Source: Escherichia phage JSE
Sequence record: EU863408
Reading direction: 5' to 3' (one strand)
DNA length: 64,000 nucleotides
A program made the translations under genes and the position numbers. Of this stretch, positions 1 through 57,535 are shown piece after piece. Under the pieces are notes generated by a model that was given only the letters and a program-made list of their open reading frames with translations, did not search any database and was not told the DNA's origin. Every line of letters starts with the position of its first letter. Within the stretch, counting starts at the first letter, position 1.

Positions 1-2109
1 TTAAAATTTAACATTCTTAACCAGTTTCATAAAGTCTTGTGCGCGTTTGTCGTTATGCAGAATACGATACCAGTTATCTACAATATCATACAGTAACGGG
101 CTATTCTCTTTAAACTTCGCACAAACTGCTTTAATTCGTTCGTTTGCTGCCGTGAATTTTTCATCACAGATCTTTTTAGTTTCTTCGTCCATAATCCAAC
201 GAGTATGAAGGAGTAACTTGGAAACCTCTTTATTATAATGACGACCGTACAGTCTGTCAATAAATTCTGGAATACAGCGTTCTAGTTCATCGTCATGAAA
301 CAACATAGTGATCACACCCAGATATTCGCCATACCCCAGATGATTGGTCTTAACCTTCTTCGCCAGACCAGCCAGCTTACCGCGAACAAATTCTAGCGCA
401 CATTCCAATTGTTCGTCAACGAGATATTTTTGTGTCTCGTTTCGAGTAATAATATACTTTGTTACCCCGAAGTAGTCAAGCGCCGTATGTAATGTATTTT
501 CACTATAGATCGATTTACGACTACGGCTTTCGAATGCATCACCTACGCGGAACATGTGCAAGCCTGATAACTCGCGAATCTCTGCCGCTTTCATGTGATG
601 GCTGGTTTTATGCCAACTGTCACCAATCTTTTCCATGATATACACGTTAGGCAGCTTGGGAGTCGCTTCACGTTGTGTACGCTCGGTCTTCTCCGGCTTA
701 ACTGCTTTAGCACGCAGATCATCGGCCTCAGAAACTTTAATCACGGTCATTTCAGAATCATCATAATACTGTTTGATGTACTCGAAAGTCTCCATATGTT
801 TTTCGTTGCGCTGACGGAACACAAGTACCTTTTTATTGATGCCGTATTCCTGGACCATGCCGTTAAGAGTCAGTGCACGCAGTTTCGGTTTATCGGTATC
901 ATCAATAAGACACATAATATCTTCTTTATGCATCCATACAAAATGCGTAATGTTGTATTGACTGCTAACGAAAGCAGGGCGCAATTTACTGATTGTGTGA
1001 CGAGTACGATACAGAGTATACACCTGACCTTCTACGTCATTAGGCGAATCTTTACCCGCATTCACAAACTTATTATAGATTGCTACCGGATCGTCCCATT
1101 GTCCGATCTTACCCATCTTGCTAATAATATTGCGTTGCGTCGATGAATACTCGCTCATAAATTGAGCAAGTTTACGCTCTGTTTTAATGTTGGCGATCTT
1201 TTCTTTAACCTTTTCCAACATCATTTCATTGATTTCTGCAATGCGTTTTTCGATGTTCGCTTTAGTCTCAATTGACAAGTGAACTTCTTCACGCGATGGC
1301 ATCAGGTCCAGATCACCCAACTCAAAATTAATGTAAATGGTCTGGTGCTGGCGGTTTACAGCTTCTAACCATGTTCCGCGAACATATTCATACGGGATCG
1401 GATACTGGATCTTACCCATGATTGCATATACTACATAGGAATCGTTATCACGCCCATTACAAACATAATAATTATCAAAGCTAGGGAAATAATTAATTTC
1501 GATTGCATTGATATTCGGTTTGTGTTCCCCAAAATGACGCAGTACAAATTGCGCTTCTCGATGCCATGTCTGAATGTCTTTTTCTTTCACCGGAATAGTG
1601 ATTTTCAGACCATTGTCTTCACAGGTCGGTTCGTCGAAAATCTGCACCATTTTCGGCATAGAGTTTTGCACAAATGCCGTAAAGCCATAAGCGCGACCAT
1701 TGTAATAGTTTACGATTGTAAAGGTGTCGGTATAGCTATAAGCAGACTTCGCACCTAAACCAAAAGATCCGATATAATCATTAGTCTGGTCTTTTGTTGA
1801 TTCAAAGTAAACCGTAAACAGTTGTTCTAATTCTTTCTTAGACGGAATACCAGTACCATAATCACGCACAGAAAAATACGGTTCGATTGCAGTCGGTAAA
1901 TGAATATCAAACGGACGATCTAATGTTCCGGCTTCTTTGTGAGTGTCGGTAGCATTACATGAATACTCACGGACGCAAGCACGCTCACAATATTGATAAG
2001 TGTTCTTAGAAAGCACCATAAAAGCCTTGCTACTTGCTTTCAGTGAAAAATCAACCGCACCGCTCAAGTCACTGCCAAATACTTCTTCATTATCAATATG
2101 CATTTTCAT
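1..2109 (-). CDS. rIIA: rIIA membrane-associated protein (GHKL ATPase-like domain); C-terminus cut by window edge
   Basis: 702-aa ORF; HATPase_c-like motifs RDYGTGIP and GSFGLGAKSAY; SD GAGGA before ATG at 2107-2109; left end of T4-type map. Confidence 0.85.
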   Translation of the reverse strand: MKMHIDNEEVFGSDLSGAVDFSLKASSKAFMVLSKNTYQYCERACVREYSCNATDTHKEAGTLDRPFDIHLPTAIEPYFSVRDYGTGIPSKKELEQLFTVYFESTKDQTNDYIGSFGLGAKSAYSYTDTFTIVNYYNGRAYGFTAFVQNSMPKMVQIFDEPTCEDNGLKITIPVKEKDIQTWHREAQFVLRHFGEHKPNINAIEINYFPSFDNYYVCNGRDNDSYVVYAIMGKIQYPIPYEYVRGTWLEAVNRQHQTIYINFELGDLDLMPSREEVHLSIETKANIEKRIAEINEMMLEKVKEKIANIKTERKLAQFMSEYSSTQRNIISKMGKIGQWDDPVAIYNKFVNAGKDSPNDVEGQVYTLYRTRHTISKLRPAFVSSQYNITHFVWMHKEDIMCLIDDTDKPKLRALTLNGMVQEYGINKKVLVFRQRNEKHMETFEYIKQYYDDSEMTVIKVSEADDLRAKAVKPEKTERTQREATPKLPNVYIMEKIGDSWHKTSHHMKAAEIRELSGLHMFRVGDAFESRSRKSIYSENTLHTALDYFGVTKYIITRNETQKYLVDEQLECALEFVRGKLAGLAKKVKTNHLGYGEYLGVITMLFHDDELERCIPEFIDRLYGRHYNKEVSKLLLHTRWIMDEETKKICDEKFTAANERIKAVCAKFKENSPLLYDIVDNWYRILHNDKRAQDFMKLVKNVKF

Positions 2110-2586: not shown

Positions 2587-2624
2587 TTTGATTCTCCTAA
2601 GTGGTATCTCGTTTCGATGGGGAC

Positions 2625-2653
2625 ATTATGATATATCCCCGATCCAGTGTCAA
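2625..2653 (-). promoter_or_regulatory. sigma70-type early promoter (PeSL-like cassette)
   Basis: minus strand TTGACA, 17-nt spacer, CATAAT; GGGGA/TCCCC inverted repeat around the -10 box. Confidence 0.6.
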
Positions 2654-2660
2654 CAGATTT

Positions 2661-2960
2661 TTAATCTTTTTTCAATGCATCCATTACTCGCTCTGCGATC
2701 AGTTCTCGTAAGCACTGATAACCATGATATTTGATGGCAATGTCACGCAGATCATTAACCAGTTCCCGTACTTCATGGTCTTTCAGATCGTCTCTGTATT
2801 TCGATTTAACCGTGTCTTTAGGTGGATTGTGGATAACCTGAAAACCTTGTTCTGCAATCACTGCGGCTTCGCGCTGGCGTTCATGCTGTACTGTATTTTT
2901 GATCAGGTCTGCTTCCATGAACTTTGCCATACTCATCATCATGTTATTCTTTTTGCTCAT
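2661..2960 (-). CDS. hypothetical protein
   Basis: track ORF 2661-2996; start moved to ATG at 2958-2960 (SD GAGGA) because promoter -10 lies at 2995-3000. Confidence 0.45.
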   Translation of the reverse strand: MSKKNNMMMSMAKFMEADLIKNTVQHERQREAAVIAEQGFQVIHNPPKDTVKSKYRDDLKDHEVRELVNDLRDIAIKYHGYQCLRELIAERVMDALKKD

Positions 2961-2994
2961 TATTAAATCCTCATAAAAGAAAAGGGAGACTCCC

Positions 2995-3022
2995 ATTATA
3001 GAGAATCTCCCTTGTATGTCAA
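2995..3022 (-). promoter_or_regulatory. sigma70-type early promoter
   Basis: minus strand TTGACA, 16-nt spacer, TATAAT, followed by GGGAGTCTCCC inverted repeat. Confidence 0.55.
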
Positions 3023-3582
3023 CTAAAATTTAAAGATGCAAACTCCCCGTGATGAATTTTTGCATATTCATCATATGCTCTAGCGGCTTCCTCCTGAGTA
3101 GCAAACGATCCTATGTATTTTCTGTATCCGTTTATCCTTATTTGTGCTTGCCACGGTCTTTTGCTCGATCCTTTGCGATGAGTAACACCATTATATATGC
3201 TCGTGCACCCGTCCATTTTCTTTTTATTGTACATGTTTTGTTGTTGTGTTGCCTCCCGTAAATTTGGTGGATTGTTGTTTTCTGGATTCCCGTCTATGTG
3301 GTCTATTACCTTAACCTGTGTTCCATATTCAAGAAACCAGACAATTCTATGTACAAGATATGTAGATGTTCTCTTTTTAACCTTATTGTAAACATCTATT
3401 GCCAAATGACCGTAATTTAACTTTTTTGTTTTTACTTTATCACCGACTTGGTAGAAATATCCCTCTGGTAGACCATTAAAAGACGGACTATTTGTTTTGT
3501 GATATAGAACACCTTCCGTGTGTCCAAATCTTCGTTTTAATTCCTCTTGAATTTCAGTATTCCAAAATTTCGCACTTTTCAT
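3019..3582 (-). CDS. free-standing HNH homing endonuclease with C-terminal AP2-type DNA-binding domain
   Basis: 187 aa; HNH core HIDGNPENNNPPNLREAT; AP2-like tail (YNGVT...WQAQI...GSFATQEEAARAYD); start 1 nt after gene 39 stop; paralog at 56960-57535. Confidence 0.8.
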   Translation of the reverse strand: MKSAKFWNTEIQEELKRRFGHTEGVLYHKTNSPSFNGLPEGYFYQVGDKVKTKKLNYGHLAIDVYNKVKKRTSTYLVHRIVWFLEYGTQVKVIDHIDGNPENNNPPNLREATQQQNMYNKKKMDGCTSIYNGVTHRKGSSKRPWQAQIRINGYRKYIGSFATQEEAARAYDEYAKIHHGEFASLNFS

Positions 3583-3583
3583 A

Positions 3584-5407
3584 TTATGACGCCATCCATG
3601 CCTTCCTCATGTCTGAATCTTCACTATAGAGCAAATCGAATAGCTCTTTATAGTTTTCCGGTAACGTGATGATCTCCATGACAGGATCGTTGATCACGCG
3701 ATGATAGTCTGATTCTGTGAGCGATGCTAAACCTTTGATATATCGAATGTTGTAACCTTTGATATTATCTCGGTCGTTCTCGAAATCTTCTAGGTCATAA
3801 TACCATCGAACATCATCACCTTTCTTTGGTTCAGCAATGATAATAGGTGTTTTGATAAACCGGATTCGTCCATCTTCGAACAATTCAGGCCAACGTGCAA
3901 AGAAAGAGATCAGACTAGGTTTAATAGACCCGATCCCGTCAGTATCAGCGTCGGTCATAATCGCAATATTTTTGTATTGCATAACTTCCAATGCATCAAC
4001 ACCAAATTGCAAGCCAGTGATCGCCATGATGTTAAAAATTTCGGCGTTCTTAACGATCTTTGCCTCCGGTTGTTCCCACGTTGTAAGAGTTTTGCCTCGC
4101 AACGGGAAACCTCCATGTAAATCTTGATCACGTACAGAGATCAGATAGTTGATCGCGGAATCACCTTCCGTCAAAAACAGGGTAGTTTCTGCGTCAGTTC
4201 CAATAAGGTTAGCTTTAACGTGTTTTGCTACCTTAGCCCGTTTTGCTGCCTTTGCTGCCTTAGTCGCTGCCGCTTTATCTGCTGCCTCTTTGCGTGCCAG
4301 GACTACAGCAATAATAGGCATGATAATGTTTTCTTTCTTCGCAATGACTTTAGCCAGCTTTTTAAAATCAAGATCAATATGACGCTTGATATCACCAGTT
4401 GGGTTAGTCAAGCGTTCTTTTGTCTGTGAATCAAAACGAAGGTTAGGCAATTCACGAACAATCAAAATACAGGTCAATCCAGACTTAACCGCAGCTTTAG
4501 TAACATCAACCTTATATTCTTTCTTGATTCGTTTTACAATCTCTTCACAAAGATCATCTGTCACGTAGTCTACGTGTGTTCCCCCGTTTTTGGTAAACAG
4601 ACCGTTAGCAAAGGATACTGATTTAAAACCTTCTCCCTCGACCGCCGGAACTAGGGCAAGTGAAAAGTTTTTATCTTCAATGACAAACGGATCATCATTG
4701 TATAGTTTAGCATAATCCTTGAACTTACTAACAATACGTTTACCATTAAACTTAAACGTGATCTTAGGAAATATTACGCTCAATGATTGCAGACGATCAT
4801 GAACAATATCTAAAACAGAGTTGTCCATCATATAACCTTCGAAGTGGTCGAAGTCTGGGCAAAATGTAACCTTTGTTCCCTTCAATTTTGATGGTTTCGA
4901 TGACCATGTGATATTTTCAGCACCGTTTGTACATTGAACGGTCATTTCTGTTTCGCCGTCACAGGTCACACCAGTAAACCAATCGCTAAAGAAATTTGAT
5001 AACGACGACCCAACACCGTTCATCCCTTGCGTTAATCGATTGGTATCATCAAAGTTAGACCCTGCTTTTGTTCGTGTCCATGCGGCTACAGGTTGCGGAA
5101 TCTGCGTACCCTCTGGGGTAGTAACCATATGTTGAGGAATACCGCGACCGTTGTCTGTTACCGTAACAATATTGTTTTGGATATCGACGCTAATCACATT
5201 GGCAAATTCAAAATTAGTGCGAATCGCCTCGTCTACAGAGTTGTCGATGATCTCATCAATGATTTTCACCAGTCCAGGAACATATGAAATTTTTGTCCAT
5301 TTACCGAACAGGAAACGTTGATGTTCTTCGTAAGTTGTTGATCCTATATACATTCCTGCACGCTTAAGGACATGCTCACGATCAGATAAAATGCGAAACT
5401 CACTCAT
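3584..5407 (-). CDS. 39: DNA topoisomerase II large subunit (GyrB-like), gene 39 fused with gene-60 region
   Basis: 607 aa; N-terminus MSEFRILSDREHVLKRAGMYIGS; GHKL ATPase and TOPRIM motifs; one continuous ORF through the region that T4 encodes as gene 60. Confidence 0.9.
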   Translation of the reverse strand: MSEFRILSDREHVLKRAGMYIGSTTYEEHQRFLFGKWTKISYVPGLVKIIDEIIDNSVDEAIRTNFEFANVISVDIQNNIVTVTDNGRGIPQHMVTTPEGTQIPQPVAAWTRTKAGSNFDDTNRLTQGMNGVGSSLSNFFSDWFTGVTCDGETEMTVQCTNGAENITWSSKPSKLKGTKVTFCPDFDHFEGYMMDNSVLDIVHDRLQSLSVIFPKITFKFNGKRIVSKFKDYAKLYNDDPFVIEDKNFSLALVPAVEGEGFKSVSFANGLFTKNGGTHVDYVTDDLCEEIVKRIKKEYKVDVTKAAVKSGLTCILIVRELPNLRFDSQTKERLTNPTGDIKRHIDLDFKKLAKVIAKKENIIMPIIAVVLARKEAADKAAATKAAKAAKRAKVAKHVKANLIGTDAETTLFLTEGDSAINYLISVRDQDLHGGFPLRGKTLTTWEQPEAKIVKNAEIFNIMAITGLQFGVDALEVMQYKNIAIMTDADTDGIGSIKPSLISFFARWPELFEDGRIRFIKTPIIIAEPKKGDDVRWYYDLEDFENDRDNIKGYNIRYIKGLASLTESDYHRVINDPVMEIITLPENYKELFDLLYSEDSDMRKAWMAS

Positions 5408-5510
5408 TATTAAACCTCTTCATAACATAACCATAACTTACTGCAACCGCCACAAAGACGGCTGCAACAATCATATTAAAAATTGAGTGATTGTCAAGTA
5501 TATGACTCAT
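5400..5510 (-). CDS. small hydrophobic ORF (36 aa)
   Basis: hand-translated; ATGA overlap with upstream gene, stop overlaps gene 39 start; one predicted TM segment. Confidence 0.3.
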   Translation of the reverse strand: MSHILDNHSIFNMIVAAVFVAVAVSYGYVMKRFNNE

Positions 5511-9880: not shown

Positions 9881-9888
9881 TATAAATA
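9881..9888 (+). promoter_or_regulatory. candidate T4-type late promoter (TATAAATA)
   Basis: exact TATAAATA about 30 nt before the plus-strand endonuclease ATG; RBS AAAGGAGA. Confidence 0.45.
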
Positions 9889-9917: not shown

Positions 9918-10838
9918 ATGAACTATAAACGTATTTATGATAACCTGATTGAACGTGCTAAGACTAGAAATATCGACGGATACACAGAAAAGCATCACAT
10001 CATACCACGTTGTATGGATGGAAGCGATGACCCCACCAACCTAGTAAGACTTACACCAGAAGAACATTATATGGCACATCTTTTGTTAGTTAAGATATAT
10101 CCAGATAATAATAAACTGATATATGCCGCTAACATGATGTGCGTTTCTTGTCATGGACAAAGACAAACAAATAAGCGTCACGGATGGTTGCGTAGAAAAA
10201 CGGCGGAAGCGCATAGTAAAAGAATACGCGATAGAATGGAGAACGATCCAGAATATAGATCTAAGGTTTCGGAATGGGCTAGAAAAATGGGTAAAGCCAT
10301 GAAAGGCGTTAAGCGAGGACCGGAATTTAGCAGAAAGTTGGCAGAAAGAAACAGAAATACCGTGATGAGAGAAGAAACTAAACGTAAGATCGGGGAAGCC
10401 AACAAAGGAAAGAAACGTACAGAAGAATATAAAAGAAAACATAGTGAAAGGTATAAAGGTGAAGGTAATCCGATGTATGGTAAACGAGGAAAGGACCATC
10501 CGGCATATGGTACTAAACCGTGGAACAACCAAACATCATTTGTTGAGCAGAAAGCATGGTGGCGGTTCGCTGGCATGTTTTATGACTGGTATCGGAGAGA
10601 TATTGACCGTGGAACACATAAACGCCACGGTCATAAGAGAATGTTGGATGAGTTAGGTTTCGTTGGTTGGCGAGAAAAAGAGCCAGCCGCAGCAAGACGA
10701 TCAATTGAGATGTTCGCTAAAGGCTGGAATCCTTATGAAGACCAAGAATGGTTAGATTATGTTAATACCCGCTTTCCAAACGACGATAGTTTTCCGCGTT
10801 CTTCAACATATACAAGACAAACAGATCCTTCGCAGTAA
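9918..10838 (+). CDS. free-standing HNH homing endonuclease with NUMOD3-type repeats
   Basis: 306 aa; HNH core EKHHIIPRCMDGSDDPTNLVRLTPEEHYMAH; repeated basic ETKRKIGEANKGK-type motifs; the only long plus-strand gene here. Confidence 0.8.
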   Translation: MNYKRIYDNLIERAKTRNIDGYTEKHHIIPRCMDGSDDPTNLVRLTPEEHYMAHLLLVKIYPDNNKLIYAANMMCVSCHGQRQTNKRHGWLRRKTAEAHSKRIRDRMENDPEYRSKVSEWARKMGKAMKGVKRGPEFSRKLAERNRNTVMREETKRKIGEANKGKKRTEEYKRKHSERYKGEGNPMYGKRGKDHPAYGTKPWNNQTSFVEQKAWWRFAGMFYDWYRRDIDRGTHKRHGHKRMLDELGFVGWREKEPAAARRSIEMFAKGWNPYEDQEWLDYVNTRFPNDDSFPRSSTYTRQTDPSQ

Positions 10839-56959: not shown

Positions 56960-57535
56960 TTATTTTGGATCTGGGAAATTCAATAGAGCATATTCTCCAT
57001 AAAATTTCCTAGCTGCATTATCATAAGCGATTGCAGCTTCGATTTCTGTGTCATATTGTCCAAGAACATGTCTTTGTAGGTTGACCATTATACTAGCTCT
57101 CCATTTCTTACGCAAATCCTTCCTGTTACACTTACTAACACCCTTATACACACTAGAAAACTTTTTAGACTTCTTCTTTCTATTATGTTGATTTTGCGCG
57201 TCGGTTGCCTCCCTAAGATTTGGAGGATTGTTATTAGCAGGATTACCGTCAATATGATCAATTAATCTAACTTGCGTCCCATGTTCTAGAAACCAAACAA
57301 CCCTATGCACGAATAGATGAACTCTAGGAAGACCGTCATCTCTACTATGCCAAAATCTAAGATGACCATCTTTATTTGTTCTGACTTTAACTAAATCGCC
57401 GTGTTTATATCTACTCCCTAATGGTCGTCCTTTGATAGCTTTACTATCGACTCTATAATATAAGATACCCTCTATATGAGCATATCTAAGTTTTATCTCG
57501 TTTTGTAGGGATTCATCCCAATATTTAAAAGCCAT
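56960..57535 (-). CDS. free-standing HNH homing endonuclease with AP2-type domain (paralog of 3019-3582)
   Basis: 191 aa; HRVVWFLEHGTQVRLIDHIDGNPANNNPPNLREAT; also similar to 3019-3582 at nucleotide level. Confidence 0.8.
   Translation of the reverse strand: MAFKYWDESLQNEIKLRYAHIEGILYYRVDSKAIKGRPLGSRYKHGDLVKVRTNKDGHLRFWHSRDDGLPRVHLFVHRVVWFLEHGTQVRLIDHIDGNPANNNPPNLREATDAQNQHNRKKKSKKFSSVYKGVSKCNRKDLRKKWRASIMVNLQRHVLGQYDTEIEAAIAYDNAARKFYGEYALLNFPDPK

Follow-up and report, generated by a model that had tools for sequence, protein, structure and literature searches.

A probable HNH-AP2 homing endonuclease gene directly behind the unsplit topoisomerase gene 39 of Escherichia phage JSE

Results

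Organization of the gene 39 locus

We analysed a 64,000-nucleotide (nt) stretch of Escherichia phage JSE (EU863408), hereafter the window, in which the gene for the large subunit of DNA topoisomerase II (gene 39) is followed directly by a gene for an HNH endonuclease with an AP2 domain. Both genes lie on the minus strand, and all coordinates refer to the whole stretch (Table 1). Comparison with related phages makes it probable that the second gene is transcribed together with gene 39 and codes for a free-standing homing endonuclease of the HNH-AP2 class, whose target is the 3′ end of gene 39 in relatives that lack the endonuclease gene. The relatives comprise 57 Krischvirus records that match 4.5 kb around the gene 39 locus at 90–99% identity. 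All records examined among these matches are annotated as, or resemble, Krischvirus (RB49-like), and we assign the window phage to this genus of RB49-like coliphages. Eight sequences are positive for the HNH gene, namely the window and the records LF73P4, G37-3, G5211, kvi, pEJ01, W115 and FL15.

Table 1. Features of the gene 39 locus in the window. Coordinates are those of the whole 64,000-nt stretch; aa, amino acids; ORF, open reading frame.
Feature	Position	Strand	Basis or remarks
DNA topoisomerase II large subunit gene, unsplit (T4 39+60 equivalent), 607 aa	3584..5407	-	GHKL ATPase, transducer, Toprim and Toprim-C domains
Stretch equivalent to the T4 disruption, codons 474-491 (…LEVMQYKNIAIMTDADTDG)	3935..3988	-	BLASTP, T4 annotation, MobA insertion coordinates of 10.1101/2022.08.31.505936
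Hypervariable last 10 sense codons of gene 39, allele A	3587..3616	-	alignments; proposed target or immunity tract
Mobile cassette relative to empty-site phages	3023..3616	-	594 nt in place of 36 nt of RB49 (GCAGATCAGCGCAAAATTTGGATGCAATCATAACAC)
HNH_3 + AP2 endonuclease gene, 187 aa	3019..3582	-	ORF, Pfam, PHROG, phmmer
HNH core, residues about 75-118	3360..3229	-	D94, H95, N103, N116 correspond to I-HmuI D74, H75, N83, N96
AP2 domain, residues about 127-186	3204..3025	-	Pfam and phmmer
PeSL upstream of gene 39	5438..5497	-	promoter TTGACA, 16 nt, TATGAT at 5497..5470 (11/12 consensus positions); 14-bp terminator-like stem-loop at 5470..5438
PeSL at the right edge of the cassette	2975..3022	-	TTGACA 3022..3017, 16 nt, TATAAT 3000..2995 (12/12); overlapping 13-bp hairpin 3013..2982, T-tract
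Downstream flanking ORF, 111 aa, RB49 ORF005c homologue	2661..2996	-	PHROG 15065; outside the cassette, conserved right flank

Gene 39 is in one piece

The 607-aa product of gene 39 matches PHROG 543 ('DNA topoisomerase II large subunit') over residues 2–606 (E = 1e-252), and the Pfam families HATPase_c, DNA_gyraseB, Toprim and TOPRIM_C are all represented in it. We compared it by BLASTP with T4 gp39 and with spliced gp60, both taken from the T4 record. Residues 4–475 of gp39 align with window residues 2–474 at 57% identity, and residues 31–159 of gp60 with window residues 476–606 at 53% identity (E = 4e-52); a single residue separates the two blocks. The original prediction, made from the letters of the window, had held that one gene covers both T4 parts and had named the alignment of its C terminus with gp60 as the check. 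The two collinear blocks bear this out. The last 41 residues of T4 gp39 and the first 30 of T4 gp60 have no counterpart in the window protein; these ends have been described as insert-derived extensions (10.1101/2022.08.31.505936). The 50-nt bypass of T4 would fall after codon 491 (Gly) of the window gene, where the reading frame is continuous and stays so beyond. The Toprim DxDxD motif is unbroken in the window (MTDADTDG, residues 484–491, then I at 492), whereas the bypass breaks its counterpart in T4 gp60, MTDADHDG/L.

Gene 39 of the window is 98.5% identical to that of RB49 at the nucleotide level over 1,796 nt, and both encode 607 aa. Gene and position are the same in the two phages, which differ only in the last 10 codons and in the endonuclease cassette that follows the stop codon in the window. 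The unsplit form is already known, since the RB49 GenBank record notes that gene 39 corresponds 'to gp60 and gp39 in T4 which are disrupted by an insertion', the Phi1 record names the gene '60+39', and unsplit Topo2L has been described as parental in all clades in which the MobA element of T4 occurs (10.1101/2022.08.31.505936). A one-piece gene 39 is the usual form and established knowledge, and the window gene is 'pre-split' only in a trivial sense.

An HNH-AP2 gene starts one nucleotide after the stop codon

The endonuclease gene had been predicted to be intact and to begin 1 nt after the stop codon of gene 39, and both points are confirmed. The junction reads ...GCG TCA TAA T ATG AAA..., with the stop codon TAA at 3586..3584, the spacer T at 3583 and the ATG at 3582..3580. 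At the other end, the TGA stop codon of the HNH gene (3021..3019) sits within the −35 hexamer of the next PeSL, a composite promoter/terminator element of RB49 and phi1 (PMC2839356).

The 187-aa protein contains a central HNH_3 domain (Pfam, E = 6e-14; 51.8 bits, over the gathering score of 24.8 bits) and matches PHROG 99 ('HNH endonuclease', E = 2e-48). A C-terminal AP2 domain is supported by phmmer comparison with solved plant AP2/ERF domains, with matches to WRI1 (E = 9e-6), ERF096 (E = 3e-5) and AtERF1 (E = 3e-4). I-HmuI (PDB 1U3E) is the only solved endonuclease detected by sequence with this protein (E = 4e-5), and the four I-HmuI positions D74, H75, N83 and N96 are identical in the alignment. 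From the work on that structure we take these four to be metal-binding and general-base residues with catalytic and structural roles. By its predicted domains, the window protein is a member of the HNH-AP2 class, with an I-HmuI-like HNH_3 core and an AP2 DNA-binding domain that presumably supplies sequence recognition. Analogy with known enzymes suggests that a strand-specific nick may be just as likely as a double-strand break. The tblastn list includes, in distant relatives of T5, a gene annotated as H-N-H endonuclease F-TflVI, and the characterised F-Tfl enzymes of T5 are nickases.

The HNH ORF is intact in all eight copies: six records annotate a coding sequence of 564 nt, and LF73P4, which has no annotation, encodes a protein 100% identical to that of the window. 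Both gene 39 and the HNH ORF can be taken from their sequences to be real genes, not chance ORFs. In FL15, W115 and G5211 the latter is annotated as 'homing endonuclease', 'HNH endonuclease' or 'putative HNH endonuclease', and the note in the G5211 record points to JSE ORF 00005; in the window, too, the gene is the fifth ORF. It entered GenBank with the sequence of JSE, and its presence is not new. Its protein family is found in 1,720 phage records. Magnani et al. reportedly described AP2 domains in HNH endonucleases in 2004, RB49 included.

Elsewhere in the window, a second HNH_3 + AP2 ORF (191 aa; 56960..57535, minus strand) encodes a protein 45% identical to the one at 3019..3582. This paralogue has a G+C content of 0.361, a GAGGA ribosome-binding site of its own and hairpins on either side. 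Petrov et al. (2010) counted two putative HNH-AP2 homing endonuclease genes in JSE, one in RB49, three in RB43 and six in RB16 (PMC2993671, Table 5), and the two ORFs of the window agree with the entry for JSE.

Edges of the cassette and a hypervariable gene 39 tail

The edges of the cassette were read from a multiple alignment of the window with one empty site, that of RB49, and three filled ones, those of FL15, W115 and G5211. On the right, homology to RB49 restarts exactly at TTGACA (3022..3017), the −35 hexamer of the PeSL. On the left, similarity to RB49 ends not at the stop codon of gene 39 but ~30 nt before it. The cassette thus defined spans the end of gene 39 as well as the endonuclease gene (Table 1).

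We read the gene 39 tail in 17 sequences, eight HNH carriers and nine non-carriers. All eight carriers have the tail of the window, allele A (GAT TCA GAC ATG AGG AAG GCA TGG ATG GCG TCA TAA, encoding DSDMRKAWMAS), and none of the nine non-carriers does. Allele B, the tail of RB49 (GAT GCA GAT CAG CGC AAA ATT TGG ATG CAA TCA TAA, encoding DADQRKIWMQS), recurs in the non-carriers Phi1, GEC-3S, Brandy, kaaroe and an IMG/VR contig. It differs from allele A at 13 of 30 nt, and several of the differences are silent. Two further alleles occur in non-carriers, allele C (DSDRRKAWMQS) in JEP8 and allele D (DSDRRKEWMCS) in SSG23 and Makalu_002. The listed non-carrier records lose similarity to the window at position ~3612, with the exception of JEP8, which aligns up to the stop codon at 90% identity.

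Nucleotide diversity in the 30-nt tail is 0.29, compared with a mean of 0.028 for gene 39; the next-highest 30-nt segment of the gene reaches 0.11 and itself overlaps the tail tract. Among the non-carriers alone, the tail remains well above the gene (0.20 versus 0.032). Gene 39 thus ends in a hypervariable spot with sharp limits, about 10 times as diverse as the rest of the gene, and one of the alleles at this spot shows perfect linkage to the endonuclease. Alleles C and D may be escape variants or simply older alleles.

What is new here is small: edges mapped to the nucleotide, a recoded tail linked to the endonuclease, and a hypervariable spot with four alleles. Published papers on HNH-AP2 genes of T4-related phages contain neither the cassette boundaries nor the linked tail allele, and in the searchable literature we found no HNH-AP2 member of T4-type phages with a mapped target or demonstrated homing.

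The cassette is optional and nearly identical among carriers

The cassette is present in 7 of the 57 Krischvirus records (about one in eight), while the remaining 50 have the same unsplit gene 39 with an empty site. Because these 50 relatives have the unsplit gene without it, the endonuclease is best seen as a recent, optional insertion and not as part of the ancestral arrangement. Among the eight carriers the cassette diverges by 0–1.0%, compared with up to 3.4% in the 1 kb flanks on either side (gene 39 upstream, and the downstream flank). FL15, W115 and pEJ01 show no difference at all in the 594-nt cassette, yet their adjacent 1 kb on each side is 2.7–3.4% different; at 3% divergence, the Poisson probability of zero differences in 594 nt is ~2e-8. 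By flank distance, the non-carriers kaaroe and RB49 are nearest or second-nearest to several carriers (G37-3, G5211, kvi and W115). The G+C content of the HNH ORF is 0.362, against 0.403 ± 0.022 for the window, which places it in the lowest 1.6% of equal-sized segments. Presence or absence among relatives, a near-identical cassette and low G+C are the signatures expected when a homing endonuclease gene spreads between relatives that infect the same cell.

A further statement, that the cassette far exceeds gene 39 in conservation, was dropped. The gene identity of 91% in G5211 and G37-3 reflects a distinct, diverged 5′ segment of ~650 nt and not divergence of the gene in general, as a sliding-window profile revealed: in these two records the first ~650 nt of gene 39 (equivalent to window 5403..4764) are 72–83% identical to the window, and the remainder 97–100%. 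Directly upstream of gene 39, G5211 but not G37-3 carries an additional ORF of 242 aa whose product has an Endonuclease VII domain (hef-like; 4094..4822 of the G5211 record, minus strand). The pattern suggests another endonuclease cassette, unrelated to the first, with co-conversion of the 5′ part of gene 39; G37-3 would have kept the converted segment but not the endonuclease.

A different reading of the patchy distribution makes the cassette passive cargo, moved by general or PeSL-mediated homologous recombination, with an endonuclease that is inactive or acts elsewhere. Its right edge lies exactly at a PeSL, and PeSLs have been shown to mediate ORF shuffling in RB49 and phi1 (Arbiol et al. 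2010, PMC2839356). A PeSL-bounded indel (RB49 ORF004c, absent in the window and in FL15) shows such shuffling 400 nt away, the flanks are visibly mosaic, and carriers are few. The left edge, however, has no PeSL and lies inside an essential gene. In all eight copies the ORF is intact and the residues aligned with the I-HmuI active site are identical. Moreover, no other 30 nt of gene 39 vary as much as the tract beside the insertion, whose allele shows perfect linkage to the endonuclease. A variable tract with a linked allele is the pattern produced by endonuclease-driven conversion and target-site escape, which argues against passive transfer, and we consider this reading unlikely.

The endonuclease gene is probably coupled to gene 39

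The PeSL upstream of gene 39 is the probable promoter of a joint gene 39/HNH transcript. The PeSL at the right edge of the cassette probably terminates this transcript and promotes the next ORF. Its hairpin has a folding energy of −21.3 kcal/mol (z = −4.4; none of 200 shuffled sequences was as stable), and the element is annotated as terminator and promoter in G5211, GEC-3S and Makalu_002. On the coding strand between the promoter at 5497..5470 and the terminator at 3013..2982, a consensus scan found no other terminator-like site and one weak promoter-like match (9 of 12 positions, 3730..3701), which lies inside gene 39.

A promoter of the cassette's own was considered and rejected: the coding-strand consensus scan showed no sigma-70-like site immediately upstream of the HNH ATG, and the T4 late-promoter motif TATAAATA was not found for the gene. 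As no promoter of its own was found, the HNH gene appears to be co-transcribed with gene 39. The 20 nt before its ATG contain no good Shine-Dalgarno sequence; the paralogue at 56960..57535 has GAGGA. Nor does the gene 39/HNH junction form a significant RNA structure (z = 0.15 against shuffled sequence), and a start codon hidden in RNA structure, as in some T4 endonuclease genes, was rejected because the junction folds no better than shuffled sequence. Given no good Shine-Dalgarno sequence, no adjacent promoter, no late motif and no junction structure, the HNH gene is probably translationally coupled to gene 39.

Co-transcription and probable coupling would also fit a domesticated function, for example the exclusion of co-infecting relatives by cutting their topoisomerase locus, or a part in DNA metabolism together with the topoisomerase. 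In T-even phages, free-standing endonucleases are known to cause marker exclusion, going by the SegF and SegG references in PMC2993671. The gene is nevertheless dispensable, as 50 of 57 relatives do without it, and nothing ties the 187-aa protein to topoisomerase function. Exclusion would, besides, be the same molecular act as homing, so that the two differ in emphasis more than in mechanism. We regard a domesticated role as very improbable.

No detectable relation of the cassette to the T4 MobA element

The original prediction read the locus as a pre-split arrangement with the mobile element parked downstream. The first half stands to the extent that gene 39 is unsplit, which is the parental state; it is not a stage of a T4-type split, given that 50 of 57 relatives have the unsplit gene without an endonuclease. 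The second half, taken to mean the T4-type element, is not supported, as the element is a different one, with no detectable similarity to MobA, another architecture and another site.

As a MobA query we used the intact protein of phage T4T (272 aa). The best BLASTP match between it and the 187-aa window protein has E = 1.0, and a tblastn search with the 187-aa protein in the first 9 kb of T4, which include the mobA/60.1 region, returned nothing at E ≤ 10. Kinship with MobA was rejected on these two empty searches. In MobA, the Pfam HNH matches lie near the N terminus and stay below threshold, and there is no AP2 match. MobA elements measure ~1.1 kb and are always inserted at Topo2L residues ~466–491, with C- and N-terminal extensions and the 50-nt bypass (10.1101/2022.08.31.505936). 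The insertion point corresponds to window residues ~474–491 (nt ~3988–3935) within Toprim, and the window cassette lies ~350–400 nt further downstream, after the stop codon. None of the three features that define the MobA element is seen at the gene 39 locus, which has no MobA homologue, no Toprim insertion with extensions and no 50-nt bypass. We also rejected a relic of a lost MobA element, as in the 'hit and run' C- and N-terminal extensions of the preprint's Aeromonas clade, because the junction alignment is gapless and has no extra sequence.

What speaks for a pre-split stage with a MobA-type element parked behind the gene is that gene 39 is unsplit, that an HNH-superfamily endonuclease gene adjoins it, and that the cassette, like the MobA element, includes a version of a short stretch of the topoisomerase gene. 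Against this stand the missing similarity to intact MobA and to T4 mobA/60.1 DNA, the different domain architecture, the absence of every MobA hallmark, and the sister genomes in which the unsplit gene has no endonuclease beside it. We give this reading hardly any credence and consider it already effectively refuted. As judged by these comparisons, the cassette is an independent mobile element that has nothing to do with the T4 39/60 split.

Discussion

A model of homing into the end of gene 39

We propose that the HNH-AP2 gene behind gene 39, probably a selfish insertion, homes in the intronless manner. In this model, the gene would be transcribed together with gene 39 from the upstream PeSL promoter as a bicistronic early transcript. 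Low-level re-initiation at TAA-T-ATG after the gene 39 stop codon would yield the enzyme and keep a potentially harmful nuclease scarce. During co-infection, the carrier's enzyme would nick or cut the DNA of an empty-site phage within or close to the 3′ end of gene 39, or at the junction of stop codon and PeSL. Recombinational repair from the cassette-bearing genome would then copy the endonuclease gene together with the allele-A tail. The carrier itself may be protected by the 13 of 30 nt that differ in its tail, by the insertion splitting the site, or by both.

Several points weigh against homing by this gene. Polymorphism alone places the proposed target site of the enzyme. The diverged tail could be a linked natural allele of a hypervariable tract, and three of the four alleles occur without the gene. 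Ordinary recombination in highly mosaic phages could also, if less specifically, give identical cassettes in diverged flanks. A carrier frequency of 7 in 57 is low for a very efficient homing element, though such elements are commonly gained and lost in cycles. In IMG/VR and JGI metagenomes, scans for exact matches to the allele-A tail yielded no further copies; the corresponding allele-B scan of IMG/VR returned one contig. In the protein, the Pfam AP2 match (E = 2e-5, 25.2 bits) falls under the gathering score of 33.3 bits. Finally, an AlphaFold model from a two-sequence alignment (the two window paralogues) has a mean predicted local distance difference test (pLDDT) score of 47.7, with the HNH region below 50, and is too poor to confirm the fold; its only moderately confident part is the AP2 region at residues 131–175 (pLDDT 70–76), which forms three strands and then a helix.

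A more specific form of the proposal is that the cassette is an active HNH-AP2 homing element, independent of MobA, that acts at the last 30 nt of gene 39 and carries its own recoded tail as the immunity determinant, the four Krischvirus alleles being the trace of a cycle of attack and escape. We put this forward tentatively, as a possibility about which some doubt prevails.

Comparison with known endonuclease systems

The HNH-AP2 genes of T4-related phages (JSE, RB49, RB43, RB16 and KP15; PMC2993671, Table 5) share the HNH_3 + AP2 pair and are likewise free-standing and intergenic beside conserved genes. SegF, SegG, MobE and Hef of T-even phages are also encoded between conserved genes. In T-even intronless homing, the neighbouring gene is cut in the endonuclease-less phage, flanking markers are co-converted, and the carrier is protected by site differences (PMC2993671). 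These T-even enzymes belong to GIY-YIG, Mob-type HNH or EndoVII-like families and have been tested experimentally. Several T-even endonuclease genes have late or middle promoters of their own (PMC3468402), in contrast to the window gene, for which none is detectable. I-HmuI of the Bacillus phage SPO1 is a nicking, intron-encoded enzyme that binds DNA through a C-terminal helix-turn-helix domain; the window protein is free-standing and has an AP2 domain instead.

The MobA element, as far as the preprint relates Bonocora et al. 2011, resembles the cassette in being a mobile HNH-superfamily cassette on the topoisomerase II large subunit gene that is patchy among near-identical genomes (10.1101/2022.08.31.505936). 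Each has a diverged replacement: in the MobA element this is HomR, which contains the nick site, and in the cassette it is the 30-nt tail. The cassette is unlike the MobA element in having no sequence similarity to it, in its length (594 nt versus ~1,100 nt), in lying after the stop codon and not inside Toprim, and in causing no split, added termini or bypass.

Our findings say nothing on the origin of the T4 split or of ribosomal bypassing: the unsplit gene is parental, and the neighbouring endonuclease is not the splitting element. Both the unsplit gene and the HNH-AP2 gene were already in public annotation or a published table. The value of the locus is modest; it provides a clean natural example with nucleotide-mapped edges and a linked recoded tail that marks the likely target or immunity tract. 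The HNH-AP2 class is widespread in phages and is the presumed ancestor of plant AP2/ERF domains. The carriers W115, FL15 and kvi and the empty-site phages RB49 and kaaroe grow on E. coli K-12, which makes a direct homing test of an HNH-AP2 enzyme feasible. If the element is indeed active, the locus would offer the first tractable system in E. coli in which homing by an endonuclease with an AP2 domain can be tested and, with the internal MobA and the EndoVII-like gene of G5211, the topoisomerase gene would be a three-fold target of unrelated selfish endonucleases.

Neighbouring features in the window

Gene order (rIIA ... 39 ... dexA, dda) is the same in the window, T4 and RB49. The neighbours of the gene 39/HNH pair in the window are rIIA (2109..1), three small ORFs, a zinc-ribbon 39.2-like ORF, dexA and dda. 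The coding strand has three near-consensus sigma-70 promoters (5438..5497, 2975..3022 and 2625..2653), of which the first two overlap strong hairpins. They set off gene 39 with the HNH gene, and then the small ORFs that follow, as transcription units of their own.

RB49 ORF004c (195 nt; RB49 1080..1274) is missing from the window, as from FL15, at ~2600..2612 (minus strand). The site adjoins a PeSL-like promoter/hairpin (TTGACA at 2653, CATAAT ending at 2625), and the indel looks like the PeSL-bounded shuffling described in PMC2839356.

A 306-aa ORF with HNH and NUMOD3 domains (mob-like endonuclease) lies at 9918..10838 on the plus strand, opposite to its neighbours. The T4 late-promoter consensus TATAAATA has three matches in the window, one of which (9881..9888, plus strand) is ~30 nt upstream of the start of this ORF.

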